From Chlamydiota bacterium (GTDB taxonomy: Bacteria; Chlamydiota; Chlamydiia; Chlamydiales; SM23-39), in the NCBI GenBank assembly GCA_050049995.1, contig JASFVE010000003.1, positions 1 through 49,133 of the forward strand: a stretch of DNA of 49,133 bases, written 5' to 3'. The first letter of the stretch is position 1; every line of letters starts with the position of its first letter. This document shows, one piece after another, positions 32,155 through 46,278 of the stretch. Both the position numbers and the translations under genes were made by a program. A model generated the notes under the pieces. It did no database searches. It saw only the letters and a program-made list of their open reading frames with translations, and was not told where the DNA came from.

Positions 32155-32201
32155 GTTTCAAGAGCTTGATTGTGTACTAAAAAGTTTAAAGTTAATCTCT
32201 T

Positions 32202-33176
32202 CTAAGAGGGATTAAATAAATACCTCCCAAAGATACTCATGAATACAAATCTAATCTTTAGACATCCAAGGGTAAATAAGTTATCACAATTAGATTCTAA
32301 CACATTATATTCCCTTCTAAGGTTTGCCAAATGCTGTGTGACTTCTTCCCGAACTGGTGAAGCTCTATCTAAAGTTAGTAACTCCCTAACTTTTTTGTCT
32401 AAACTGGACAAGTAAGTAAAATCCTCACAGCCTTTAACTTCAACATACCTTGAGCCCAAAATTGACATCTTTACTGAAGCATTTCTTGTAATGGATAAAA
32501 AATCTTCAAATGTTTGTATGCACTTCAACAGGGTAGAAACTTTAGTGTGTATCCTCTTTTCAAAAACCCTACAAGTACGCGCAATATGATCAGTAGGATG
32601 CTCAGAAATTTCTACATAGGCTGTTTCTGGTGGGTTATAGGGTGCAAAATTTCTAACACAAGGTATCTCTAAATTTGGGTTTTGCCGATATGCTTGTTCC
32701 CACTCTTCTTTATCTACACCTCTCCCATTTAAAAAAAATCTTTTAACGCTTAAATATTTGTTAACACAGTGGTCAAAAGTAGCATCACCAATAAACTCTA
32801 TATTTTCACTCTCAAATAATTGACTTGTAAACTCTTCAAAATAATCATTTGCATTAAGTCCAATTACTACATGACGGCCATCTGGGTAAATGCATGTACC
32901 TAACGATTGAGATGTTTCTCCATAAATCCTTTCAATTTCTCTTCCTATTAATTTCCCAATTTCTCTAGTAGCTTCCGTCCAAAGAGGCTTTCTCATGATT
33001 AGTTCTTTTACTTTATTTGCAAGATCGTGTTCCTCCAAATGCCCTGAATAGTCTTGAACGGTAACAAAAGGACTTCTATATATGCGACCTTTATGGCCTT
33101 TTGCCGTTTGGGCAATCGTCAAAACATCTTCAAATGTCCTTGCATTGAATAATTCTACTTTAATATCTGTTCCCAT
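32202..33176 (-). CDS. hypothetical protein with two copies of a ~55-aa domain
   Basis: AGGAG RBS; N-terminal TFEDVLTI...FVTVQDYSG...LANKVKELI and C-terminal TFEDFLSI...YVEVKGCED...LDKKVRELL. Confidence 0.75.
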
Positions 33177-33284
33177 ATTTTCTCCTATAATAAGCCGACA
33201 TCTCTCGGAGGGTTATCAGCATGATAACTATCTGAATAAGTAAAATAACTAGAAGCTGTGTGTGTCGTAAGCCCTCACTCTTTA

Positions 33285-33528
33285 TCAAAAAGCATTCCTA
33301 ATAAAGTAGGGTTTAAGCGAATATCCACCTCCTCTAAGTTCTTGGCAGCAAAGAAATGTAGGCATTGCTCTTTTGATCACTTCAAATACACGATCTGATC
33401 GCGCCCCACTTATATTTTTCTAAAGAAGCTCCAGCTTCAATACATCTGTTTGGATGAACATTACAGATATTGTAAGTCATTGCATCAAAAGAAATTGAAC
33501 GCACTGTGTTTTTAGAAACTGAACTCAT
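33285..33528 (-). pseudogene. truncated, frameshifted endonuclease/exonuclease/phosphatase (EEP) family gene
   Basis: Manual translation from ATG 33528 gives MSSVSKNTVRSISFDAMTYNICNVHPNRCIEAGASLEKYKWGA; after a frameshift near 33400 it continues SDRVFEVIKRAMPTFLCCQELRGGGYSLKPYFIRNAF*. This matches the EEP TYN...W...QE N-terminal pattern. Confidence 0.7.
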
Positions 33529-33669
33529 TGTACCCACCCTTTACTTAGGAGCTGCTCCTATAGTTGATAAGAAAAATTCTCAATATAAATTTTTATACAG
33601 ATAAAGACAAAGCAATTACAAGTTTTCACCACACTAAAATTGCCTTGAAAATCAGAAACTATATCTCGT

Positions 33670-35295
33670 ATGATAAAACGCTATTTTTTCAATATTATGC
33701 GAATTTTATTTTTATTATTATTTTTATTTATTAGTACCCCGGAAACTAAAGAAACATTAAATAGGCCAACCCTTGCTTATAAAGCACGACTGCCACAGTT
33801 GCCACCTCAAAGCAAAGACTACATCAACATCGCCAATTACAATGCTAGAACGAGCTTTTTAGACAAAGGAACACCTAATTCCTGGGAAAACCGCAAAGAA
33901 TATTACCTTAAAACCTTAAAAATTCATGATGAAAGTTATATGCTCTTAGAGCACATGCAAACAAAACTACGAAATTCATTAAATAAATATCTTACGGCCA
34001 GCTCTACTTCACTCCAAACTAAGAAAAACTGCATCACCTGTGAGTACGAAAACAAAGAAGCTTTTCCTGTTTTTGAAACCGAATTTTTTAGAATAGCTTT
34101 GAAAACAGTGTCTTCTGATGAAAAAGGTTTTATTTACGGAAACTTCCCTTATCCTTATCGCTTAATAATTGCACTCAAACGACACGCTTCACAACCTTCT
34201 GAACAAGAATGGTTAGAACTAAGGATAATCTTACAGACTCTTGAAAGGCATGTTAAAAAAGATTTGGGAGCTGACTATACCTCTTATGCTTCTCTTCAGG
34301 ATAATTTTTATAAGAATAAAAAAGATGCTAAACCTATTCCAAAAACTCCTCACTATTTTATTCATTTTATTTTTAGGTTTACGAAAACAATTGAGATAAA
34401 CGGCATCCCCTTTAAAGATCCCAATCCTTTTGATCAGTTCAACTTGCATTTTTCAAATCTGATATCAGAAGAAAAAATAAAATCATATTCAAATTTCATC
34501 TACAAAAGACAGCCTGATATTATCAACATACAAGAATTGACCATCGACCAAACTAATTTTCTTAAAAATAAACTAAAAAAACACAAATTTATTTCTTATG
34601 CTGCTGCAGATGGAAAGCTTTTCGACCAAATAACATCAGATGATTACTATCATGAAATTCTTTCTATAAGTTATCGATCGGATCGCTTTGAATGTTTAGA
34701 CCATGGTGTTCGTTGGATTTCTGCTACACCTGACAAGCCATCAATAGGATATGGGGCCTCAAGACAACGAATTATTATCTGGGGAAAGTTTAAAGATAAG
34801 AGATCAGGCAAATTTTTCTATATTTTCAACGCTCACTACGACCATCTAGGTGGAAATACTAAATATGTAGATTCAGAAATACTAACGATCAAAAAAATAG
34901 CAAAGGACTGCCTTTGGTTTTCTGCTGGAGAACGCTTCTATAAGAGCCAGAATGGCGAGAATTTATACCGGCATTACTTAACTTCCATTGAATGTAACGA
35001 TGTACGAGACATTAGTCTACTCGGACATTTTGGTGAATCTGGTAGTTGGGGAGGATTTCCTAAGGATCAATTTGCATGCTCAGTAAAAGGTGGAAATTTT
35101 GAGTGCGATACTTTAGATGTTTGCTTTACTAATGCAAAAAAAAATCAGATTTTGCTTACTTATTCATTTAGTGGAGCCTATAACCCTAAACAAAAAGAGT
35201 TATATAGTTTTCACAGCTTTATCAATGATCCTTATCAACTTGCTTCAGACCATTTTATGATAGGATTTTATCTGATCTTAAATGAAAATGATTAG
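33670..35295 (+). CDS. EEP-family phosphoesterase with inserted HIT-like domain, N-terminal signal/anchor
   Basis: EEP motifs IANYNAR...SWENRK, PDIINIQE, FNAHYDH, LDVCF, ASDHF. Insert at aa ~121-258 has CITC, RLIIALKRH, PHYFIHFIFRF...FKDP. Start may be ATG 33697. Confidence 0.8.
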   Translation: MIKRYFFNIMRILFLLLFLFISTPETKETLNRPTLAYKARLPQLPPQSKDYINIANYNARTSFLDKGTPNSWENRKEYYLKTLKIHDESYMLLEHMQTKLRNSLNKYLTASSTSLQTKKNCITCEYENKEAFPVFETEFFRIALKTVSSDEKGFIYGNFPYPYRLIIALKRHASQPSEQEWLELRIILQTLERHVKKDLGADYTSYASLQDNFYKNKKDAKPIPKTPHYFIHFIFRFTKTIEINGIPFKDPNPFDQFNLHFSNLISEEKIKSYSNFIYKRQPDIINIQELTIDQTNFLKNKLKKHKFISYAAADGKLFDQITSDDYYHEILSISYRSDRFECLDHGVRWISATPDKPSIGYGASRQRIIIWGKFKDKRSGKFFYIFNAHYDHLGGNTKYVDSEILTIKKIAKDCLWFSAGERFYKSQNGENLYRHYLTSIECNDVRDISLLGHFGESGSWGGFPKDQFACSVKGGNFECDTLDVCFTNAKKNQILLTYSFSGAYNPKQKELYSFHSFINDPYQLASDHFMIGFYLILNEND

Positions 35296-35345
35296 TCTCA
35301 CTTTATTCAAGATCTTAATGCTTAACTTTATTTATGGTTAAAAAT

Positions 35346-37841
35346 TTAGTTAGAATGATTTTTATGCATCTTTTTTATGAACTTAAGGAATTTTTGATGA
35401 TGTGAGCTTTCAAAGTTTAAATGCTTGTAGAAAAGGATTTTTACAAAATCAGCTATAAACATCCAAATAATTGTATATCCCCAAATAAGTCCAATATAAG
35501 CCCAGGGTATTGGTGTCATAAATATGCCTATACCAACTAGTAAAGCAGCAATTAACTGTGTCGTTAAAATAGCACTCAATAAAATTAAAGAAGGAAAAGG
35601 CCTGAAGAAAAATGGTTTTTTGGATCTTGCAAGAAAAAGCGTTTGATGTCCCGCCACAGATAATTTAAGAAAAATAAAAGATTGAATCTGATTTACATCT
35701 AGTTGAAGTATGTCTTTTGCAATATACAATAAAAGAAAAGTAGAAATTATGCCTACAATCCCCAGAGCTGTTGAAATTGTAAGCACTCGCTTCATCTGCC
35801 AACGAACAGGTTTTGGATCGATAGCAGTATTATCATATGCTATAGAAAGCATCGGAATGTCATTTAATATCGCAAGCAAGAGAATCATAATGGCCGATAT
35901 CGGATAAAAATCGAAAACAATGATCGAAATAGTAATAAAAAACATGATTCTTATAGTCTCTGCAATACGATAAATTGAGTAACTATTCATCCTTTCAAAT
36001 ATTCTTCTCGATTCTTCAATAGCTTTAATAATAACGGATAGTCCAGGAATCAAAGAAACCATGGAAGCTGCGGATCTTGCTGCATCAGTTGCGCCACTTA
36101 CTGCAATACCTACATCAGCCTGTTTTAATGCAGGAGAGTCATTTACGCCATCACCAGTCATACCTACAATGTGTTTATCTTTTTGAAGAGCTTTAACAAT
36201 ATCATATTTATGCTCTGGAAAAACTTCTGCAAAGCCATTCATACTTACTATTTTTTTTATAAATGCTTCAGAGTCGACATTTGTATCTTTTGTAATTAAT
36301 TCATCGGCAACGCATAAATTGTCGCCTAAGTTAAGTTTATGTGAAATTTCTCTAGCTATGGCAATATTATCGCCAGTTAACATTTTAATTTTGATGCCAT
36401 GTTCTTTAGCCAAATTAACTGTTTCTATTGAGTCTTCTCTCAAAGGATCAAATAAAGGTAAAATCCCCAAAAACTTCCATGTCTTTTTATCTTTTGAGAT
36501 AGCAATTCCCAATGTGCGATGTCCCTTTTTAGCATAATCATCAATGCTTTTATTTATTTGATTTTCCAAAGAGGATTCTACACTGCAGAGCTTCAAAATT
36601 ATTTGAGGAGCTCCTTTAGAAACATGAAAAGTTTTACCTTCGGCATCTTTTATTTTTGCTTCAGACCTTTTTTTTACCGGGTCAAAAGGATAAAATTCTT
36701 CTTGTTGATACTTTTCTAGCTCATCTTTATTGCTTAATGCTTTTATGATAGCCAAATCTATAGGGTCTTGATTTTCTTCTTTTGAAGCTAAAGCCCCATA
36801 TAAAATCAGAGTATTTTTATCGATATCGGCAAAAATTAGAGGTTCATCAAGTGTTAATTTATTTTGTGTCAAAGTTCCAGTCTTGTCACAGCAAAGAACA
36901 TCAATACCTGCAATTTCTTCGATTGATTCTAATTTAGTTACAACTGTTTTCATTTTAGATAATTTTAGAGCTCCTAAAGCCATAGTAACAGAAAGTACCG
37001 CTGGAAGAGCGACTGGAATAGAAGCTACAATAAGAATTAAAACATACTGAAAAAGGGTTAAGAATGGGGTATGCTTAAAAAGCTGCACAATAATTAATAT
37101 CGAAGACAAAGCAATACTCATATAAATGAGAAAATCGCCAATTTTTAAAACAGCCTTTTGAAAATGTGAAACTGGATGAGCTGTTTCTACTAATTTAGTT
37201 GTTTTTCCAAAAAAAGTATTTTTACCAGTAGCTGTTACAACTGCAACCATTTCACCTTGATTGGCAATCGATCCCGAATAAATGATCTCCCCTGATTTTT
37301 TTGTTACAGGTAGAGACTCTCCTGTAAGAGTCGATTGATCTACCAAAAGATAATCACCTTCTAATAACTTGGCATCTGCAGGAATAATATTACCAAGTCT
37401 CAATTTGATAATATCTCCGGGTACTAGCTTTTTAGTTTCTAGCTGGACCCATTTACCGTCCCGTTTTGCAATACATGTTAAAGATAACTCTTTTTTTAAT
37501 GCTTTTATTGCATTACCAGCCTGGAACTCCTCCCAAAAAGAAACGCCCCCATTGACTACTAGCAAAGAAAAAATAATATAAAAATCAACATAATGACCAA
37601 TGATTAAAGATAAAATTGCTGCAGCTTCTATCATCCATGGAATAGGGCCCCAAAAATAACTCAATACTTTCAAAAAAAGAGATTGTTTCTTTTCTTCAAT
37701 GCTATTAGATCCGCATTTCTTCAATCTTGAGTCAGCATCTGAACTTTTTAAACCTTCCTTAGATGTTTTAAGTGACTTTAAAATAGCGTCTACATTGCTT
37801 TTTTCAGCTTCTTTTGCATCTATAAAACAAATATCATCCAT
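35346..37841 (-). CDS. plasma-membrane proton-efflux P-type ATPase (P3A, H+-ATPase)
   Basis: FWGPIPWMIEAAA, DQSTLTGES, IPVALPAVLSVTMA, CCDKTGTLTQN, KGAPQ, MLTGD, GDGVNDSPALK, YRIAETIR and AILND (TM6 proton-acceptor Asp). Confidence 0.93.
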   Translation of the reverse strand: MDDICFIDAKEAEKSNVDAILKSLKTSKEGLKSSDADSRLKKCGSNSIEEKKQSLFLKVLSYFWGPIPWMIEAAAILSLIIGHYVDFYIIFSLLVVNGGVSFWEEFQAGNAIKALKKELSLTCIAKRDGKWVQLETKKLVPGDIIKLRLGNIIPADAKLLEGDYLLVDQSTLTGESLPVTKKSGEIIYSGSIANQGEMVAVVTATGKNTFFGKTTKLVETAHPVSHFQKAVLKIGDFLIYMSIALSSILIIVQLFKHTPFLTLFQYVLILIVASIPVALPAVLSVTMALGALKLSKMKTVVTKLESIEEIAGIDVLCCDKTGTLTQNKLTLDEPLIFADIDKNTLILYGALASKEENQDPIDLAIIKALSNKDELEKYQQEEFYPFDPVKKRSEAKIKDAEGKTFHVSKGAPQIILKLCSVESSLENQINKSIDDYAKKGHRTLGIAISKDKKTWKFLGILPLFDPLREDSIETVNLAKEHGIKIKMLTGDNIAIAREISHKLNLGDNLCVADELITKDTNVDSEAFIKKIVSMNGFAEVFPEHKYDIVKALQKDKHIVGMTGDGVNDSPALKQADVGIAVSGATDAARSAASMVSLIPGLSVIIKAIEESRRIFERMNSYSIYRIAETIRIMFFITISIIVFDFYPISAIMILLLAILNDIPMLSIAYDNTAIDPKPVRWQMKRVLTISTALGIVGIISTFLLLYIAKDILQLDVNQIQSFIFLKLSVAGHQTLFLARSKKPFFFRPFPSLILLSAILTTQLIAALLVGIGIFMTPIPWAYIGLIWGYTIIWMFIADFVKILFYKHLNFESSHHQKFLKFIKKMHKNHSN

Positions 37842-38165
37842 AATTTGCTTATATCATTAACAAGCAAAAAATCAATTAGCCGAATTCAAAATAGCTCTAA
37901 AGACTGAAAAGCTTATCCTATTTCTTAGCTTCTGCTTCAAGGCAAAGTCACAATGAAATCAACTTTCTCGCTTCGTCTACTGGAAGAATTTCTTGCATAT
38001 TCATCGCCTTTCAATGAATCTTCTACCTCTGAGGTCATAAAATTTAGGATCTTACAAAATCAAATAAAAATTAGTATAATTACTAAGCCACAAAACAATA
38101 ATTTATTGTAAAAATTCCTTCTTAATGTTGATAATATTTCAAAATTTAATAAAAAAAATTTACCA

Positions 38166-38882
38166 ATGAATGCTTTAAATATTGCTCTTACTAATAAATT
38201 TGTAACTTCTTCCTTATGCTTTGCAGGTGGTTATTCACTTAATAGTATTTCTTTGTCAATTAATAGATTGGCTGTTAAATATTTAAAGCTACCAATCGAC
38301 ATACACAATCACCAAGAATATGATGAATACACCAATAATTGCGTTGAAGCTAATAGGCGAGTAGCTAATTTACTAGGCATTGGATTAAATAGACAACTAG
38401 GGACTGCTCTAAGTGATTTCACTATATTCGGAATCCGCGAAGAAATTTCATATCGTTTTCTTTTAGAAAAGATTGTATTACCACATATTTTTCCTCAGTT
38501 TGCTGTCTTTTCATTTGCCAGAACTTGCGTTTCTAGCTTGTTTTTTGCTGCAGCACACTTACAAAATGATGCTCCCAGTGAACCGTTAGCTGGACAATTT
38601 TTTCACACAGCTATTTTAGGTATGGTATGTTCATTAGCCCTAGAAAGAATAGGCCTAGTGGGCTCAGTATTTGTTCATATAGGTTTTAACTTATATGCAT
38701 GGCAGCACATGCTTAATGAGAACCTTACAGGTGTAGTAGAAAAAATAAAAGCAATCCATTTAGTAGATGTCATTAACCCTGCCAAGTTTCTTATGCTTTT
38801 AGGTGGTTTTATTGGTGATGCTACCTTTCCTGCCACTCTGGCGTATCGAGCTACCAAAAAGATAGCAAGTTCTTTTGCTTAA
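38166..38882 (+). CDS. CPBP (CAAX/Abi) intramembrane glutamic endopeptidase
   Basis: Motifs EEISYR (EExxxR), FAAAH (FxxxH) and HIGFN (HxxxN) within hydrophobic helices. Confidence 0.82.
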   Translation: MNALNIALTNKFVTSSLCFAGGYSLNSISLSINRLAVKYLKLPIDIHNHQEYDEYTNNCVEANRRVANLLGIGLNRQLGTALSDFTIFGIREEISYRFLLEKIVLPHIFPQFAVFSFARTCVSSLFFAAAHLQNDAPSEPLAGQFFHTAILGMVCSLALERIGLVGSVFVHIGFNLYAWQHMLNENLTGVVEKIKAIHLVDVINPAKFLMLLGGFIGDATFPATLAYRATKKIASSFA

Positions 38883-38962: not shown

Positions 38963-40201
38963 ATGCTCAAAAGATTACAGCAAGAAGAGGCTATTTCCAA
39001 GAGAACCTTGCACCTTACAGCGAATGAAAACATCATGTCCCAGCTTGCTCTTAGCTTTTGCTCTAGTGAGCTAGGATATCGTTACCATGTAGGTAGCTAT
39101 GATGATGCACCTGATCTTACAAATGTGCCTTATTATATTACCCATAACCTTATGCTTCGCAATCTTCCTTCGGTTTTTGCTCTGGAAAAAATAGCACGAC
39201 ATTTTGCTTGTGAGATGTTTCATGCTAACTATTGCGACTTTCGCCCTCTTTCAGGGATGCATGCGGCATTTTCAATTTTGCTAACAACCACAAAACCTCA
39301 AGATACTGTATATATTTTTTCCACGGAAAGTGTTGGTCATCACGCAACCCTTTCTCTTCTTAAACACCTGGGCAGAAAGATTCAGTTTATCCCATGGGAC
39401 TTTTCTAGTTGTAATGTCGACCTTCATGCTTTTGCCTCTCTGGTAAAATCACATCCCCCATCTGCTATTTTTTTTGATTTTGGAACAACCTTTTTTCCTC
39501 TTCCTCTCAAAGAGATGCGTGCTATTGTTGGAGAAGGCCCACTTATGATTTATGATGGATCGCATGTGCTTGGTTTAATTGCTGGAGGGCAATTTCAAGC
39601 TCCTCTTGAAGAGGGATGTGATATCCTTATTGGCAATACACATAAAACGTTTCCTGGCCCTCAAAAAGGGATGCTTTTGTACAAAAATCCTTTTTTTGGA
39701 AAGGAAATTGCAGACGAGTTATTTTTGAGTGTTCTTTCCACACAACATACCCATCACTCCATTGCTTTATACCTAACTTTGATTGAAATGCATCAATTTG
39801 CCAAGGACTACGCAGCTCAAATTTTAACTAATCGAGAAGCTCTCGCCCAGGCTCTAATCGAAGAAGGGTTTCAAGTACACAACTCACAATCACATAAGCT
39901 CGCCCTTATCGGAGGGCCATTTCATGAGGAATGTGCCTTATTACACCAGAATCAAATTAGTACAAATTCTAGAAAATTATTTGATGCTCCATCCATTCGA
40001 ATGGGTGTACAGGAAGCAACTCGAAAAGGCATGAAAGAACATGAAATGATTCGTATTGCTAAATTGATTCGTCGATGTTTGGACGGAGAAAATGTAAAAA
40101 GAGATGTCGAAGAGCTTCTTCAAGATTTTTCAACTATTTGGGAGGGAAATATACATGAAAACATGCACCTTTATCGCGAACTCGCGCCATGCTTACTTTA
40201 A
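38963..40201 (+). CDS. SHMT-fold PLP enzyme, L-threonine transaldolase-like (not canonical GlyA)
   Basis: LHLTANEN, DFRPLSGMHA, GHHAT, YDGSHVLGLIAGG, GNTHKTFPGPQKG (PLP Lys); lacks GlyA YAEGYP and TTHKTLRGPRGG; AAGGAG RBS. Confidence 0.82.
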   Translation: MLKRLQQEEAISKRTLHLTANENIMSQLALSFCSSELGYRYHVGSYDDAPDLTNVPYYITHNLMLRNLPSVFALEKIARHFACEMFHANYCDFRPLSGMHAAFSILLTTTKPQDTVYIFSTESVGHHATLSLLKHLGRKIQFIPWDFSSCNVDLHAFASLVKSHPPSAIFFDFGTTFFPLPLKEMRAIVGEGPLMIYDGSHVLGLIAGGQFQAPLEEGCDILIGNTHKTFPGPQKGMLLYKNPFFGKEIADELFLSVLSTQHTHHSIALYLTLIEMHQFAKDYAAQILTNREALAQALIEEGFQVHNSQSHKLALIGGPFHEECALLHQNQISTNSRKLFDAPSIRMGVQEATRKGMKEHEMIRIAKLIRRCLDGENVKRDVEELLQDFSTIWEGNIHENMHLYRELAPCLL

Positions 40202-42071
40202 CCTACCTTCTCTTCCAAGTGAAGGTTGGAATTTTGAGTTAATTATTGAAGAACCTTATGAGGTTTCTTCTGATTTTGCAGCACTGATGACTCAAATTCA
40301 CCGCGTAAAAAAGATAGACTTTGCCACTTGTCGTCCGATCATATATAAGGCTACAAAAGCTATTGTCTGCTGCGATGAAAAGCTGTTACTAACAGCTGCT
40401 CAACTCCGAAAATCCCTTAATATTCCTGGAGCAAAACCGAGTCAGTATTTTCCATTCAGCTCCAAACGTATTATGAAAGAAATTTTATCTTGCATTCCTC
40501 TTAAAATCCCTTCATTTGTCGACTTCGATTCCCGCTTTTCTCTAGAGGAGCTGCATGCAAATTTCTCTCGACTTTTTCCTAATGGGTATATTGTAAAACC
40601 GCTAGATAGTGGCGCCAGCATGAACGTTGCTAAAATCCATTGTTTCCAGGAATTAGAAGCTTGGTACAATCAAGCCTTTGATCAAAGCGAAGAATATACT
40701 GCAGAAGAACTTATCGAAGGTGACATGTATTTTTGCGATTCTTTTGTTCTTGATGGAAAAATCCAGTTTAGCACAGTCTCAAAATATCTTTATCCTTGCC
40801 TTGACTTTGTCAATGGAAAGCCTCTTGGAGCCTATCCTGTTGAGCAAGAAGCCGTGTCTCGTTTCAATCAAAAAATTATCGAAGCGCTTGTTCCACCTGA
40901 TGGAGGACTTCACATGGAATGCATTGAACAAGATGGAGAGCTTTTTTTTATTGAAATTGGAGCAAGGCCTCCAGGAAAAAGTGCAGTTGCTTGCCATGAA
41001 AAAAATTTTGGCATTAATCTCTATGAATGTACCCTGAGAAATGAACTAGGTCTTTCGATAGATTTTACAATGAAAACTGACCTTTACCACAGCTGGGTCG
41101 TTCTTTCGACCTACCCAGGAGTTGTGCATCAGTTAAATCCCCCAGCTCTTAAAAGCCATCATAAAATCCATTGGAAAATTCAAAAAGGTGACACCATAGC
41201 TTCTTATCCACCTCATATAAACAAAGGATATTCTGCTTTTTTAGAATTACACAATAAAGACTATAAAGAATTTTTAGAAGATTTAGAGTACCTTAAAACA
41301 CATAAGCCCTACCTGGACTGGGGATCTGTTTCTGAAGAATACGCTCTTTTCCGACCTCCTCCCCCTGCCTCCTTTTTTGAAAGACTTCAAAAAGTAGGGG
41401 TAGGGTTACCTAATCAAAGGGTTTTAGACTTGGGTACAGGAACTGGTTTTTTAGCCAGACAGTTTGCACTTCAAAAAGCTATTGTAACTGGGGTTGATAT
41501 CTCGGAAAAACAAATTCAAATGGCCAAGTCTCTTTCAGAATCTTTATCAATTGAATACCTTGCCTCTCCAGTAGAAAACATATCTTTTCCCGATGCTCAC
41601 TTTGATGTCATCACGGCTATGCAGTGCTGGCCCTATTTTAACCAAGAAACTCTTTTGCCTATTTTAGAAAAAATTTTAAAACCCAATGGTGTTTTAATGA
41701 TTGGCAATTTTGATCACCTTTCTAAACAGAGCGAAATTGCTTCCATGACAGAAGAGCTGATTTTGAAATACAATCCTAACTGGACTCAGGCAGGCTACAA
41801 CGGAGAACTTTCTCCTCCTACAAATATCACCGTGCAAAAAATGTTTTACTATGATGAAGAAATTGCTTTTACCGCAAACAGTTGGATACAACGTATGGTT
41901 GCCTCACAGGCAATTGGCACTATTTTGTCTCGCCAAAGAATTCAAGACTTTAAAGAGGAGCTCTCGACCTTATTAAAACCATTTCCCTCTTTTACTATTC
42001 CTCACCGTTTATCCGCATATATTAGTTCTTTTAAACCTTCAGCTGCTGCTTTAGAAAATAGGGTTTTATAA
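40155..42071 (+). CDS. ATP-grasp ligase fused to class I SAM-dependent methyltransferase
   Basis: ATG 40155 after GGAGG. ATP-grasp motifs YIVKPLDSGASMNV, EELIEG, HMECI, FFIEIGARPPG; from ~41316 DWG..SEEYA.FRP, VLDLGTGTG, VTGVDISEKQI, FDVITAMQCW. Confidence 0.87.
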   Translation: MKTCTFIANSRHAYFNLPSLPSEGWNFELIIEEPYEVSSDFAALMTQIHRVKKIDFATCRPIIYKATKAIVCCDEKLLLTAAQLRKSLNIPGAKPSQYFPFSSKRIMKEILSCIPLKIPSFVDFDSRFSLEELHANFSRLFPNGYIVKPLDSGASMNVAKIHCFQELEAWYNQAFDQSEEYTAEELIEGDMYFCDSFVLDGKIQFSTVSKYLYPCLDFVNGKPLGAYPVEQEAVSRFNQKIIEALVPPDGGLHMECIEQDGELFFIEIGARPPGKSAVACHEKNFGINLYECTLRNELGLSIDFTMKTDLYHSWVVLSTYPGVVHQLNPPALKSHHKIHWKIQKGDTIASYPPHINKGYSAFLELHNKDYKEFLEDLEYLKTHKPYLDWGSVSEEYALFRPPPPASFFERLQKVGVGLPNQRVLDLGTGTGFLARQFALQKAIVTGVDISEKQIQMAKSLSESLSIEYLASPVENISFPDAHFDVITAMQCWPYFNQETLLPILEKILKPNGVLMIGNFDHLSKQSEIASMTEELILKYNPNWTQAGYNGELSPPTNITVQKMFYYDEEIAFTANSWIQRMVASQAIGTILSRQRIQDFKEELSTLLKPFPSFTIPHRLSAYISSFKPSAAALENRVL

Positions 42072-42190
42072 TTTTTTTTAATTTTAAACTAATAATAGTA
42101 AATAAATATTTTTTAATTTTTTATTTAAAAAAAATCAATTTATGTTAACATTTGTGCTCTTTAATTTTTTTTAACCTTAAAAGTAAAAAA

Positions 42191-43429
42191 ATGACACCAA
42201 CTTTTTCTGCCTATTTTAAAGCTCTATATTATACAAATACTTATTTACCTCCATGTGATTTAAGTGAGCAAGCCTTATCGAAACATTTACTTGAAGCTGA
42301 AGATCCGCGCCTAGCAGCAACGGCTCAACGACTAATCTCTCAAACACAAGTGCAAAAAGTTCTTTCTGAAACATTGAGTTATGATTTAGAGTTTGCAATA
42401 CCACAAAAAAACCAAACTCTTAGAGATCATGACTTTACATTGTTAAGTAGTAAACCTGACGCTTACGGTAACATATATCCCTTCTATAGTGTTATTGAAC
42501 ATAATGATTTACCTGGCTGGGTAATCAAATCAGGAGCCAACAGAGTTCCAGAAAATTTCCACTTATCTGGACCGTTAAATAATAGACATGAAAAAGCCTC
42601 TTATACAAAAGAAGAAAGCATTTTAAGGTTAGAGCTAGCAAAGAGAATAACTCAAGTAGCTCAAAAAAATGGTCTTGATATTATTGTTCCTAAAAAGAAG
42701 CTCGTTAAATATGCAAATTCAGAAAACCCTTCAGACCCTTGTAGAACGTATTGCGTTCTTTCGCAAAAAGTCAATATCTTAACCCTTGCAGAGACTGTTC
42801 AGGTCATTAAATCAATGACTGCAACTCAGCAAATAGAGACTGCTCAAAAAATATGTTCGATCATTAAAAAAATAGGTTTTGTTGATGCTTCTTTCAGTAA
42901 CATTCGCTTAACTCCTGACGGAAAAATTGCGTTTATCGACACGGAACCTTCAGGCCTTTTGGTTGCCCAAAAACCAGGCTTGTGGAATAGATTATTTCCC
43001 CCAAAAGGATCTAGCGTTGAAAAATGCGCCCGTATTGGATTGTACTCCTTACTACACCAAACTTCACGAGCAGCACTTAGAACAGGGCCATCATTTAGCT
43101 GCGAACCTGGTCTAGAAGCTTTCCGAGAAGAAGTACAGTCCCAATACGATAGATCAGCACCAAGTTTATCGAAATGGAAAATTGGATTAAGCATTGCTAG
43201 CCTAGGTCTTATTCCTGTAATAAATGCAATTGTATCTCTAGTGGCAACGATCCGGATAAGAAAAGCTTTTGAAAAAATGCAAAAAATTGATACTGCATTT
43301 GAATCAATAAAACGTACTTTACCTGGAGAAACTCCAGATGAGCAACGACGCCAAATATATGAATATCGCTTTAATAGGTCTCCAATAGAAAAGCAATTTT
43401 TAGCCCTTACCGAAGGGATCCCCTATTAA
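42191..43429 (+). CDS. hypothetical protein with protein-kinase-like motifs and C-terminal hydrophobic helix
   Basis: WVIK (VAIK-like), GFVDASFSNI (DxxxxN catalytic loop), IAFIDTE (DFG-equivalent); likely start ATG 42191. Confidence 0.65.
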   Translation: MTPTFSAYFKALYYTNTYLPPCDLSEQALSKHLLEAEDPRLAATAQRLISQTQVQKVLSETLSYDLEFAIPQKNQTLRDHDFTLLSSKPDAYGNIYPFYSVIEHNDLPGWVIKSGANRVPENFHLSGPLNNRHEKASYTKEESILRLELAKRITQVAQKNGLDIIVPKKKLVKYANSENPSDPCRTYCVLSQKVNILTLAETVQVIKSMTATQQIETAQKICSIIKKIGFVDASFSNIRLTPDGKIAFIDTEPSGLLVAQKPGLWNRLFPPKGSSVEKCARIGLYSLLHQTSRAALRTGPSFSCEPGLEAFREEVQSQYDRSAPSLSKWKIGLSIASLGLIPVINAIVSLVATIRIRKAFEKMQKIDTAFESIKRTLPGETPDEQRRQIYEYRFNRSPIEKQFLALTEGIPY

Positions 43430-43494
43430 GTATAGCAGGCCTTTTTTGTTTAAATTAGGTTAAATTTATTAAATAAGACTTATTTAGTGTGTAA

Positions 43495-44073
43495 ATGCCA
43501 GCTCCATCCCTATTAACTAAAAGACTTCTACTCCGACAGTGGAAAGAAAGTGATCTTTCTCTTTTTGCTAACATAAATAGTGATAGGCGTGTTATGGAGT
43601 ACTTCCCTTCTACCCTCTCTAAAAAGGAAAGCGACTCTTTAGCTGAAAAGATTCAAAAAGAACTTAAAGAAAAAGAATATGGATTTTGGGCTATTGAAGT
43701 CATTGGAGTCGCTCCTTTTATTGGCTTTGTTGGCTTACATTACCCTGATTTTCAAGCCTCTTTCACTCCTTGTATCGAAATAGGCTGGAGACTTGCCTAT
43801 GAACATTGGGGTAAAGGATATGCTTTCGAAGCGGCAAGCAAAGTTATTGATTATGCCTTCAACACACTGAACCTTCAAGAACTTGTCTCTTTCACTACCG
43901 TAAAAAATAAACGCTCTAGAAAGTTAATGGAAAAATTAGGAATGACCCACAATCCTAGTGATGATTTCGACCACCCAAAGTTGCAAAAAAACCATCCTTT
44001 ACGCCCTCATGTGCTCTATCGAAAAAAAACTCATAATGAGAATGTGGCTCATTTATCTCAAATAATTCGTTGA
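43495..44073 (+). CDS. GNAT acetyltransferase, RimJ/RimL (Acetyltransf_3) family
   Basis: TKRLLLRQW, FIGFVGL, IEIGWRL...WGKGYAFEAA, NKRSRKLMEKLGM, FDHP...HVLY. Confidence 0.92.
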   Translation: MPAPSLLTKRLLLRQWKESDLSLFANINSDRRVMEYFPSTLSKKESDSLAEKIQKELKEKEYGFWAIEVIGVAPFIGFVGLHYPDFQASFTPCIEIGWRLAYEHWGKGYAFEAASKVIDYAFNTLNLQELVSFTTVKNKRSRKLMEKLGMTHNPSDDFDHPKLQKNHPLRPHVLYRKKTHNENVAHLSQIIR

Positions 44074-44130: not shown

Positions 44131-46278
44131 ATGAGTTCTAGTCACTTGAACCTAATTAAGAATTTTTTCACTGAAAATTATGGTCAAACCCACCCATCAT
44201 CCATACAAGAAGAAGATTTTCAAGCTGGCATTCAGCTATTTACTAAACTAGCTGAAGAATTAAGTATAAATACACCAGAGGCAAGCTCAAGGCTTTCTAA
44301 AAAAAATGTCAGAATAGAAAATGAACCTATCAATAATACGACAGCAAAAATACAACAGTTTCTCAAAAAACACTCCTACCGTTTTTGGAGTGCTTGTGAA
44401 GTTGGATTTCCTTTTTCAAAGCTCGAGCCCATGGAATCAGAAGCGGCATTGAAAAAATCTTTAAACAATTACCAGTCCATAATTGTAAATTTTCTTAAGC
44501 AAGATGACTCAATATGGTTAACTGAAGAAGATCTTAATAGTAAATTTGGCAAAGCATTTTATCTTTTAAATGTTAAAAAAGTTGGAGCTGCCTGTGAAGA
44601 ACTTAAAGTAGCATATCTCCGCGATAAAGATATAAAGGCAGGATATTATATGCTGTGGTTGATAAAACATGTATCAGGTTGTGACTTCAAGATCCCTCCT
44701 AAAGAATCATTTAATGCCTCCACGGTAATTAAAGTGCTATCCGATTTCGTCACTTCTCAAGACTTAGTAAGATACCCAACAAACTATATTGAACTTCTGC
44801 AATTTAGAAGTTCAAGAATAACACCTCCTCTAAATTGGGGTTTCTTAGATCAACAAACTACTATAAAGTTTATAAAATATACAGTAGCTCAACTTCAATC
44901 TATACCTATAGCAAATTGGCCTAATAAAGCAGGCATCATTACTGATCTTTTAGAAATCTTAACAACCGATGGTAAAAAGGTAGTTGCTACAGCTCTACAA
45001 TCTAGCTCTGATCACCAGACAGCAGAGGTAGGTAGTCATGTTTTAAACGCTTTAGAAGCTACCTCATTAAAAGAAGCTATTCCTCATTTCTATGCCTTGA
45101 ATGACCTTCTTTCTAATTTTAACTATACTCATGTTGAGGTAATTTTTGGCAGGCCATTTCCTCCATTCAGACATGACAAAATGGCCTTTAAAAATGATCC
45201 TGATTTCACGAGAAGATTGAATTTTAATGAAATGCGCAAAGTGTTTATCTGCGGAGATCTTATGTTAGGGGTTTATGCTCCTAATACTACATTTGGTGGT
45301 AAAGGAGTACCTCCGCACTTGCTAGCCTACAATAGGCAAACTGAAAAAATGGAATGGGGTATACCACTAACTCTTGAGCAGCCTGAAGATCTATCTCTCG
45401 TTACTACTCAAGTACCTATGACTTATGGTCTCCCTAGAATGGGACCTGCAGAATATAGCATAGGTCAAGCTGGTAAAAGTATTACCCTTCAATTTGTGGG
45501 TGAAAAAAGAGTGCATTGTATCGATTCCAACACGGGAGAAATTATAGATACTATTTTACTACCTTATGAAAAACAAAATGGTAACGATCGCCTTTATTTA
45601 ACACCTGAAGGTATTGGCTATCAAATGGTCTTTTTGGAGGATAGCATAAAATTAATTGGTGGAAAAATCTCTAACTCTTGCTTAAACCCTGATTTTGAAG
45701 TGGCTGCTCCTCATGGTTTTCTCCTTCCGCTTTCTACACATGTTGGCTTTAAAGATCCTTTTGAAGATGAGCTCATTCTCTTTAACTCTAACGGAAAGCA
45801 TGTGACCCTTGACTGTCTGTCAGCATATGCTGTTGGAACTACACTCTATCTAGTAGAGCCTAATTCTTCTCAAGAAAACACATGTAAGGTGACTGTAAGG
45901 ACCATGACTACAGATGACCAGGTAGTATCTGAGGTAGAAAAAAGTATTGTCCTCAATGTACAATCACCCTCAATAGAAAAAATATGTGACAATGGTCAGT
46001 TAGTCTTGATTAATGGCTATTTCAATAAATTTCCTATTTTTGTCGGCCTTGAGAATGGCGAAGTTGTTTATAGTGACCACAAAATACCTTCCTATGGTGC
46101 ATATCATGTAAATACCCTATCAGGAGATATATGGACCTGGGATACAGTCAGCCGAAAAATCTGGAAAGTATCTTCCAGAGAAAAAGTTTTGATGGGATCA
46201 TTGGAAAGTGGTCGAGGTACAAGTTTACTTCATGTTGATCAAAATGATCATTTATTTTTTGTAAATATTCCTTATTAA
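44131..46278 (+). CDS. hypothetical 715-aa protein (helical N-terminal half, beta-rich C-terminal half), effector candidate
   Basis: Long ORF, GAGG RBS, MSSS start, no signal peptide; no family recognised. Confidence 0.75.
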   Translation: MSSSHLNLIKNFFTENYGQTHPSSIQEEDFQAGIQLFTKLAEELSINTPEASSRLSKKNVRIENEPINNTTAKIQQFLKKHSYRFWSACEVGFPFSKLEPMESEAALKKSLNNYQSIIVNFLKQDDSIWLTEEDLNSKFGKAFYLLNVKKVGAACEELKVAYLRDKDIKAGYYMLWLIKHVSGCDFKIPPKESFNASTVIKVLSDFVTSQDLVRYPTNYIELLQFRSSRITPPLNWGFLDQQTTIKFIKYTVAQLQSIPIANWPNKAGIITDLLEILTTDGKKVVATALQSSSDHQTAEVGSHVLNALEATSLKEAIPHFYALNDLLSNFNYTHVEVIFGRPFPPFRHDKMAFKNDPDFTRRLNFNEMRKVFICGDLMLGVYAPNTTFGGKGVPPHLLAYNRQTEKMEWGIPLTLEQPEDLSLVTTQVPMTYGLPRMGPAEYSIGQAGKSITLQFVGEKRVHCIDSNTGEIIDTILLPYEKQNGNDRLYLTPEGIGYQMVFLEDSIKLIGGKISNSCLNPDFEVAAPHGFLLPLSTHVGFKDPFEDELILFNSNGKHVTLDCLSAYAVGTTLYLVEPNSSQENTCKVTVRTMTTDDQVVSEVEKSIVLNVQSPSIEKICDNGQLVLINGYFNKFPIFVGLENGEVVYSDHKIPSYGAYHVNTLSGDIWTWDTVSRKIWKVSSREKVLMGSLESGRGTSLLHVDQNDHLFFVNIPY

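Follow-up and report, generated by a model that had tools for sequence, protein, structure and literature searches.

Two overlapping genes at the core of the locus

The stretch analysed here, hereafter the window, comprises 49,133 nt of contig JASFVE010000003.1 of a Chlamydiota bacterium, and all positions are window coordinates on the forward strand. It contains two overlapping genes, referred to as gene 1 and gene 2, for which an earlier note, made from the sequence alone, had proposed a two-gene biosynthetic unit: a threonine-transaldolase-like enzyme dependent on pyridoxal phosphate (PLP), and an ATP-grasp ligase joined to a methyltransferase. The core features are given below (SHMT, serine hydroxymethyltransferase; SAM, S-adenosylmethionine).

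38963..40201, + strand: gene 1, 412 amino acids, PLP enzyme of the SHMT superfamily, predicted member of a threonine-transaldolase-like clade; K228, H126, D198, R346 and Y41 are kept, and Val43 replaces the catalytic glutamate of SHMT
40155..40201, + strand: overlap of gene 1 and gene 2, 47 nt, with a GGGAGG ribosome-binding site (RBS) at 40140-40145
40155..41315, + strand: N-terminal part of gene 2 (residues 1-387), predicted ATP-grasp domain of the L-amino-acid-ligase type; stand-alone orthologues have 395-414 amino acids
41316..42071, + strand: C-terminal part of gene 2 (residues 388-638), predicted class I SAM-dependent methyltransferase (Methyltransf_11; LDLGTGTG)

The boundaries of gene 1 are those of the listing of open reading frames (ORFs). 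The frame of gene 2 is open from 40104, and we chose the ATG at 40155 as its start, because the resulting N-terminus (MKTCTF..., or M-K/R-x-C-F... in general) agrees with those of 12 of the 14 aligned homologues; the exceptions, P0133 and P0134, have extended N-termini. From this we conclude that gene 2 encodes 638 amino acids and overlaps gene 1 by 47 nt. Both genes are preceded by a purine-rich RBS, which is AAGGAG, located 8 nt upstream of 38963, for gene 1 and GGGAGG, located 9 nt upstream of 40155, for gene 2, and the overlap probably reflects translational coupling. The layout given in the earlier note, namely two co-oriented ORFs with an overlap of 47 nt and an RBS each, was thus recovered, and so were the AT-rich flanks: the GC content amounts to 0.39-0.40 inside the gene pair, about 0.24-0.29 around 41850-42299 and 0.26 around 37950-38399.

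An intergenic space of 80 nt lies on each side of the pair. A scan for consensus promoters and terminators revealed nothing beyond the shuffled expectation (16 promoter-like matches versus 18.1 expected, 5 terminator-like matches versus 4.6 expected), and the description as an isolated unit is therefore based on composition and spacing only. Recent horizontal transfer was considered and rejected, since the compositional shift is too small (GC of the cassette 0.39-0.40 versus 0.358 for the window, GC3 0.30 versus 0.23-0.26).

Gene 1 is predicted to be a transaldolase-type paralogue of SHMT

All of the motifs quoted in the earlier note are present in gene 1, i.e. TANEN (residue 19), RPLSG (residue 94), GHHAT (residue 125, quoted as GH.AT) and GNTHKTFPGPQKG (residue 224). 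At the site of the Y-x-E-G motif of GlyA (YAEGYP-type), the reported absence of which was borne out as well, gene 1 has YRYHVG, and in the alignment Val43 takes the place of the catalytic glutamate of SHMT. The genome's own GlyA, in contrast, reads DKYSEG at this site, and the respective signatures are LIASEN...DKYSEG...THKTLRGPRGG for GlyA versus LTANEN...YRYHVG...THKTFPGPQKG for gene 1 and its relatives. This canonical glyA, the existence of which the earlier note had named as a check, is located on contig C65 and consists of one 512-aa frame with 321 and 88 bits to PF00464, compared with about 67 bits for gene 1. In the Pfam search gene 1 matched the SHMT domain weakly (68.5 bits, cut-off 27), which places it in the superfamily. 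The SHMT model of NCBIfam (NF000586) ranked second with 206 bits and was not passed (cut-off 335), behind a transaldolase model that is weighed further below.

According to the alignment with ObiH (7k34), Y55, H131, D204, K234 and R366 of that enzyme correspond to Y41, H126, D198, K228 and R346 of gene 1. Residues of this type are also conserved in SHMTs and do not discriminate between the families; therefore only the missing glutamate and the LTANEN and PGPQKG signatures do so. ObiH has FYHCS where gene 1 has YRYHVG, and in the 141-row motif table described below most members of the LTANEN clade have likewise lost the glutamate. E107 of ObiH is an alanine in gene 1; this position varies from cluster to cluster in a published screen (PMC10495429).

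Among solved structures the closest by sequence is the SHMT of M. jannaschii (175 bits, 31-32% identity, residues 71-393 of gene 1 aligned only), followed by ObiH (130 bits, 28% identity, aligned from residue 13), while bacterial SHMTs reached at most 86 bits. With the AlphaFold model of gene 1 (pLDDT 92.9), the best Foldseek match was ObiH (E 1.1e-32, TM 0.86), with the M. jannaschii enzyme a near-tied second (E 3.0e-32, TM 0.83), and we consequently dismissed fold comparison as an arbiter between transaldolase and archaeal SHMT. In the model, loop 1 is nine residues longer than that of ObiH and is predicted to form a beta-hairpin at residues 57-66. A comparable inserted beta-sheet is described for the active enzyme PbTTA in the same screen (PMC10495429).

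For the phylogeny, an exhaustive HMMER search with gene 1 against 1.84 billion representatives yielded 1834 matches with E<=1e-3, 254 of which had E<=1e-30. Representatives of at least 370 amino acids were combined with gene 1, eight close homologues and the GlyA of this genome into a set of 141 rows, which served for the motif table and a FastTree phylogeny, and a second tree was computed from 46 chosen rows with IQ-TREE in 'quick' mode under LG+G4. In both trees gene 1 falls into a clade marked by LTANEN and GNTHKTFPGPQKG (local support 99, SH-aLRT 100). This clade includes P0179, in which an SHMT-like domain is joined to a class II aldolase domain (810 bits), and P0173 (666 bits), both of which pass the cut-off of 650 of the fluorothreonine-transaldolase model TIGR04506. 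Outside of it are LIASEN rows, some with Y-x-E-G, including P0224, which passes the SHMT model with 439 bits. Hence, the proposal that gene 1 would be found apart from true SHMTs stood up in the trees. Within the clade, gene 1 joins the ligase-paired homologues (7 rows, support 100 with FastTree and 94 with IQ-TREE), which have a signature of their own past the PLP-stacking histidine, i.e. VGHHA, IGHHA or VAHNA versus GGHFA. A Burkholderia homologue (P0115) was rejected as an ObiH orthologue and tree anchor, because its profile, with 143 bits to 7k34, does not differ from that of gene 1. Taken together, gene 1 appears to be a paralogue within the SHMT superfamily, of the threonine-transaldolase type and distinct from GlyA.

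Among the relatives of gene 1 longer than 721 amino acids, five match with at least 179 bits: two fusions of an L-amino-acid ligase (LAL) with an SHMT-like domain (P0136 and P0275), one fusion with condensation and carrier domains of a non-ribosomal peptide synthetase (NRPS; P0276), one PALP fusion and one Gfo/Idh/MocA fusion. The weaker long matches listed are all GcvT-SHMT fusions of primary metabolism. Both ligase fusions come from a different subclade than gene 1, and the ligase of P0136 shares no more than 23% identity with gene 2 (over 166 amino acids). We therefore rejected P0136 as an orthologue of the cassette and regard it as an independent association, from which it follows that the ligase and the transaldolase-like enzyme were joined more than once.

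The remaining fusions are other, undescribed pathway contexts of the transaldolase-like clade. P0276 is a Streptomyces protein of 1440 amino acids, and P0274 (773 amino acids) and P0206 (789 amino acids) combine the SHMT-like domain with a PALP-type PLP enzyme and a Gfo/Idh/MocA oxidoreductase, respectively. Furthermore, four proteins inside the LTANEN-type clade (P0154, P0157, P0159 and P0183) show H-Q/H-E-G at the site of Y-x-E-G together with SSGMHA, which may represent a regained or retained glutamate within this clade.

Gene 2 probably encodes an L-amino-acid ligase fused to a methyltransferase

Residues 1-387 of gene 2 align with stand-alone ATP-grasp proteins of 395-414 amino acids (41-46% identity). 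When a profile of the orthologues was compared with the PDB, the best match was 4wd3 (E 3.9e-38), which we take to be RizA of rhizocticin, although the record itself says only 'L-amino acid ligase'. BL00235 (3vot) followed with E 9.5e-19 and BacD with E 1.5e-10, and the best match to a D-Ala-D-Ala ligase (Ddl) had E ~2.1e-10. The ATP-grasp residues K, E and R-x-x-G are conserved in the alignment of the orthologues, which carry PF13535 or PF02655. Gene 2 itself also gives weak Ddl matches (Dala_Dala_lig_C 16.9 bits; NCBIfam Ddl 23 bits). The LAL_C2 domain (PF18603) is present in the fusion proteins P0136 and P0275, which are unrelated to gene 2.

The C-terminal domain matches Methyltransf_11 with 63.7 bits (cut-off 21.2) and passes four more methyltransferase families, and the GxGxG-type motif LDLGTGTG is invariant in an alignment of five sequences. 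It is 47-52% identical to separate methyltransferase genes located 5' of the SHMT-like gene in three other loci (L005, L006 and L046). The model of the domain (pLDDT 82.7) is most similar to HvrF (9e72; TM 0.76, identity 17-18%), and the sequence matches are scattered over O- and N-methyltransferases. In line with what the earlier note had assigned to both genes, gene 2 is thus best described as a predicted LAL of the RizA/BacD type fused to a class I SAM methyltransferase.

The pair recurs as a rare cassette with variable partners

When the ligase alignment was used for pattern scans, 37 loci were obtained from species-representative genomes and a further 28 from metagenomes; their neighbouring genes were identified by tblastn with the window proteins (E<=1e-5). 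An SHMT-like gene lies immediately upstream of the ligase gene and on the same strand in 10/10 fetched loci with a ligase of at least 40% identity. After merging identical loci (L004 with L041, L006 with L043, L007 with L045), seven distinct loci remain, or eight including the window, which originate from Chlamydiota, Victivallales and metagenomes, and the pairing is found in all eight. The recurrence that the earlier note had named as a check is therefore observed. The other 55 loci, which harbor distant ATP-grasp relatives (23-39% identity in the best segment), showed no SHMT-like neighbour, several of their contigs being shorter than 2.2 kb and uninformative. Altogether, genes 1 and 2 appear to be functionally linked.

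The partners of this pair differ between loci. The methyltransferase is fused to the ligase in the window, in L004 and in the protein P0122, whereas in L005, L006 and L046 it is encoded by a gene of its own beside the pair, from which we conclude that the fusion in gene 2 is secondary. Three of the eight loci (L007, L042 and L044) have no methyltransferase and instead harbor an amino-acid dehydrogenase of the Glu/Leu/Phe/Val family (ELFV) directly upstream; the copy of L042, the only one scored, has tryptophan dehydrogenase ScyB as its best NCBIfam match (260 bits, cut-off 600). A transporter of the major facilitator superfamily (MFS) adjoins the pair in 5/8 loci, and POT peptide transporters are encoded near it in L042 and L044. 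In L005 one tight operon encodes a PaaK-like adenylating enzyme, an aldehyde-dehydrogenase-family protein and an MBL hydrolase, followed by the methyltransferase, the SHMT-like enzyme and the ligase. Among 400 sampled Chlamydiota genomes, four contain the ligase at E<=1e-20, and it is orthologous only in the genome of the window and in G150, the source of L005. The cassette is therefore specialised, rare and mobile-looking, with an invariant core of a transaldolase-like PLP enzyme and an LAL, and with variable partners that make carbonyl compounds, methylate, acetylate or export.

As a separate observation, relatives of the ligase are encoded by two ATP-grasp genes in tandem in seven of the distant loci (L008, L013, L019, L028 and L054-L056), an arrangement suggestive of pathways of the tripeptide type.

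A GNAT gene as a probable third member, and changing surroundings

Three further genes next to the pair are of relevance here.

43495..44073, + strand: GNAT acetyltransferase (Acetyltransf_3, RimL/RimJ-like), directly 3' of gene 2 in L004
42152..43429, + strand: ORF425, strain-specific, 425 amino acids from TTG or 412 amino acids from ATG 42191; absent from L004 and outside the conserved cassette
38166..38882, + strand: CPBP/CAAX (Rce1-like) intramembrane protease gene; absent from L004 and the other orthologous loci and outside the conserved cassette

The nearest relative, L004, is a metagenome-assembled genome (MAG) of the Chlamydiae, in which genes 1 and 2 are 92.4% identical to the window at the nucleotide level. 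It is devoid of two segments of the window, 37946-38872 with the CAAX/CPBP gene and 42042-43492 with ORF425, and its GNAT gene begins 9 nt past the end of gene 2. From this we conclude that the ancestral unit probably consisted of three genes (gene 1, gene 2 and the GNAT gene), split in the window by the strain-specific ORF425. As a description of the whole, the two-gene unit of the earlier note is too narrow, since the GNAT gene joins it in L004 and the methyltransferase has its own gene in other loci. The CAAX protease gene and ORF425 were rejected as members of the cassette, because they are absent from the 92%-identical L004 and from all sister loci, and we regard them as unrelated indels.

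The GNAT of the window matches Acetyltransf_3 with 125.7 bits (cut-off 25.4) and reaches no NCBIfam equivalog. A GNAT gene is located beside the ligase gene in the window, in L004 and in L006, and also in the distant locus L010 of a Thiotrichales MAG, where a GNAT of 45% identity is encoded by a gene overlapping that of a ligase 30% identical to gene 2. The GNAT is therefore a probable third member of the unit, and it might serve in self-protection or N-acetylation. The gene order of L010 (5476-9706) is D-2-hydroxyacid dehydrogenase, MFS, ATP-grasp ligase and RimL-type GNAT, with no SHMT-like gene, and a TauD-like dioxygenase is encoded divergently upstream of the ligase operon.

Regarding the indels themselves, L004 has only 22 bp at the place matching the CAAX gene site (37946-38872), the second indel beside the cassette; the Rce1-like match of this gene amounts to 37 bits. 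ORF425 lies exactly between gene 2 and the GNAT gene, could be assigned to no family of Pfam or NCBIfam, and its C-terminal part includes a hydrophobic stretch. In the ESM Atlas it gave weak kinase-like leads, with a structural TM of 0.43-0.46 to clusters of ABC1 and Ser-Thr kinases and a feature score of 0.87 to a cluster of NleH/OspG kinases. Further upstream, 32155-37704 contains an 831-aa P-type-ATPase-like ORF (35346-37841, minus strand) and two other ORFs, and this stretch is without a counterpart in L004 apart from a 240-bp match at 37705-37945. The surroundings of the cassette are thus a hotspot of gene gain and loss among close relatives. Two large ORFs have no Pfam family, one at 44131-46278 (+, 715 amino acids), which is conserved in L004, and one at 33670-35295 (+, 541 amino acids).

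Proposed pathway and alternative explanations

Based on what was observed, namely the families to which the proteins belong, the catalytic residues that they keep, the missing SHMT glutamate, the gene coupling, the recurrence and the fusions, we propose that the locus encodes a compact NRPS-independent cassette for a small molecule, which would combine a PLP-dependent aldol step, dipeptide ligation, methylation and probably acetylation by the GNAT. We consider this reading probable, if with modest confidence, and the donor and acceptor substrates, the order of the steps, the site of methylation, export and bioactivity are inferred. Gene 1 would form a glycyl-quinonoid, most likely from L-threonine or possibly from glycine or serine, and would add the glycyl unit to a carbonyl acceptor, yielding a beta-hydroxy-alpha-amino acid. 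The ligase of gene 2 would then join this amino acid to a second one via an acyl-phosphate intermediate in an ATP-dependent manner, the fused class I SAM methyltransferase would add one methyl group, and the RimL-type GNAT would probably acetylate the free alpha-amine, either for self-protection or as tailoring. The product could accordingly be a methylated dipeptide that contains a beta-hydroxy amino acid, with L-threonine as the glycyl donor and a possible role as an antimetabolite.

Several observations weigh against this proposal. The fluorothreonine-transaldolase equivalog TIGR04506 ranks first for gene 1 among the NCBIfam models, with 241 bits that fall short of its cut-off of 650, and gene 1 is about as close to archaeal SHMT as to ObiH. 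Support in the trees consists of FastTree local and SH-aLRT values, with no bootstrap analysis, and is weaker than full bootstraps; moreover, ObiH, LipK, PbTTA and KaTTA are not part of the trees, in which the transaldolase anchors are only proteins that pass the curated model. NoTTA, TmTTA and DbTTA, SHMT-like candidates of the published screen, gave no transaldolase product (PMC10495429), and membership of the clade is therefore no guarantee of transaldolase activity. Gene 2 of the window on its own reaches 19.3 bits for ATP-grasp_4, under the cut-off of 27, and PF18603 was not detected in it at a Pfam E<=0.01. That the methyltransferase acts as a carboxyl O-methyltransferase, like HvrF or trans-aconitate methyltransferase, is only a lead from fold similarity of the model. 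The link of the GNAT to the unit is one of adjacency, in 3/8 loci and one distant locus. Finally, neither an adjacent exporter nor an aldehyde-making enzyme is encoded in the window and L004, and the acceptor would thus have to be a primary metabolite in these two loci.

The same chemistry could also lead to a benign product that the bacterium itself uses, for instance as an osmolyte, a signal or a metal-binding dipeptide, with the GNAT acting in tailoring and not in immunity. Dipeptide solutes made by GNAT and ATP-grasp enzymes are known (NAGGN/Ngg), a precedent from general background that fits this explanation, and so does the situation in the window and L004, where no exporter adjoins the pair and no resistance-type copy of a target lies nearby. 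On the other hand, the MFS genes flanking the pair in five of the eight loci and the POT transporters near two of them argue against a product for own use, and the rarity of the pair, with two orthologous cassettes in the 400 sampled Chlamydiota genomes, fits an accessory trait. The cluster of the toxin pantaphos has the same accessory set of O-methyltransferase, GNAT, ATP-grasp and MFS, and a role of its GNAT in self-resistance has been proposed (PMC7858074). Overall, we hold a benign product to be rather improbable.

To a slightly lesser degree we would expect gene 1 to be something other than a threonine transaldolase, an improbable case in which it would be a plain aldolase or retro-aldolase acting on glycine, serine or threonine, would add the glycyl unit to a 2-oxo acid or would catalyse another PLP reaction, the product then not being an ObiH-type dipeptide. 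The amino-acid dehydrogenases in three of the eight loci would make 2-oxo acids and not aldehydes, and the ligase-paired clade has its own VGHHA/IGHHA/VAHNA signature, both of which favour such a reaction. The inactive SHMT-like candidates of the screen (PMC10495429), together with the fact that gene 1 is as far from archaeal SHMT as from ObiH, leave room for a different PLP chemistry. Against it stand LTANEN, RYH(L/V)G and GNTHKTFPGPQKG, which are common to gene 1, ObiH and the anchors of the fluorothreonine-transaldolase type, and the glutamate that is gone in all of them. In addition, L005 encodes an acid-activating enzyme and an aldehyde-dehydrogenase-family protein as a pair upstream in the same tight operon.

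We regard it as very improbable that the genes are a housekeeping pair, i.e. an alternative enzyme of one-carbon or glycine metabolism, either SHMT or threonine aldolase, next to a Ddl-like cell-wall ligase. The Pfam SHMT match of gene 1 and the two weak Ddl matches of gene 2 point in this direction, but a canonical glyA exists elsewhere in the genome, gene 1 is devoid of the catalytic glutamate, the ligase profile favours LALs over Ddl (E 3.9e-38 vs 2e-10), gene 2 is fused to a methyltransferase, and 396/400 sampled genomes of the phylum gave no match to the ligase at E<=1e-20. Least probable of all, the ATP-grasp enzyme would act on a ribosomal peptide or protein, either in the manner of RimK or in the synthesis of a ribosomally synthesised and post-translationally modified peptide (RiPP), given that ATP-grasp enzymes include RiPP macrocyclases and that a CPBP/CAAX protease gene lies upstream, but the best structural relatives are ligases of free amino acids, the 80-nt intergenic spaces leave no room for a precursor gene, and the CAAX gene is absent from L004 and all other orthologous loci.

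Returning to the NRPS-independent cassette, one could speculate further that it makes an undescribed class of natural products, in which a toxic beta-hydroxy amino acid made by the transaldolase-like enzyme would be hidden by the ligase in a methylated Trojan-horse dipeptide, with the GNAT conferring immunity on the producer. In an obligate intracellular chlamydial symbiont, such a compound would be aimed at the eukaryotic host or at microbes that compete for the same host cell. This extension is tentative, and we consider it unlikely, about as much so as the benign product.

Significance

As biocatalysts for beta-hydroxy amino acids, threonine transaldolases are in demand, and to our knowledge only few natural pathways with such an enzyme exist, namely those of obafluorin, fluorothreonine, nucleoside antibiotics and clavams. 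If the proposed pathway is correct, a transaldolase-like enzyme together with an LAL would make modified dipeptides accessible by a new route that is very small; independent gene fusions confirm that the two enzymes are coupled, and a cassette of two to six genes is easy to express. The variable accessory genes, i.e. the acid-to-aldehyde pair and the amino-acid dehydrogenases, point to a group of related products and not to a single compound. The pathway would also be among the few specialised-metabolite pathways in the Chlamydiota, an intracellular phylum usually seen as metabolically reduced, and could bear on the interaction of symbionts with hosts and competitors. Should the Trojan-horse extension apply, environmental chlamydiae would possess a chemical weapon of their own.

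Comparison with known systems

The component families are of known kinds, and their conserved combination is not described in the open-access literature searched, in which we found no description of a pairing of threonine transaldolase and LAL. With the L-threonine transaldolases (ObiH/ObaG of obafluorin, the fluorothreonine transaldolase of TIGR04506 and LipK), gene 1 shares the SHMT-like fold-type I PLP fold. LTANEN, RYH(L/V)G and GNTHKTFPGPQKG are common to it and the ObiH and fluorothreonine-transaldolase anchors, and the catalytic glutamate of SHMT is missing in all. However, gene 1 is only 28% identical to ObiH, is not an equivalog of the fluorothreonine transaldolase and has no class II aldolase domain, and where those enzymes have an NRPS or a nucleoside pathway as partner, gene 1 has an ATP-grasp ligase. 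The SHMT of M. jannaschii (4uqv/4bhd) is the best sequence match to gene 1 among solved structures, but the N-terminal 70 residues of gene 1, which correspond to the folate/pterin loop and the region of the catalytic glutamate, do not align with it.

Compared with LALs (4wd3; BL00235, 3vot; BacD/YwfE of bacilysin, 3wo1), the ligase of gene 2 has these enzymes as its best profile matches and a similar size of about 400 amino acids, and an MFS transporter is found in many cassette loci, as likewise in those of bacilysin and rhizocticin. In contrast to the LALs, gene 2 is fused to a methyltransferase and has no LAL_C2 according to Pfam, and the partner that would form the warhead is an SHMT-like enzyme, which the open-access papers searched describe for no LAL pathway.

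The closest parallel in accessory genes is the pantaphos (hvr/HiVir) cluster, which encodes the O-methyltransferase HvrF, the N-acetyltransferase HvrG, the ATP-grasp enzymes HvrH/HvrL and an MFS transporter, the roles of HvrF, HvrG and HvrH, including self-resistance through the GNAT, being proposals of the authors (PMC7858074). The cassette has this set of small-acid-type methyltransferase, GNAT, ATP-grasp and MFS (the latter in sister loci) in common with it, whereas the core chemistry is wholly different, i.e. a phosphonate in pantaphos and a putative PLP aldol reaction here, and the methyltransferase is only 17-18% identical to HvrF.

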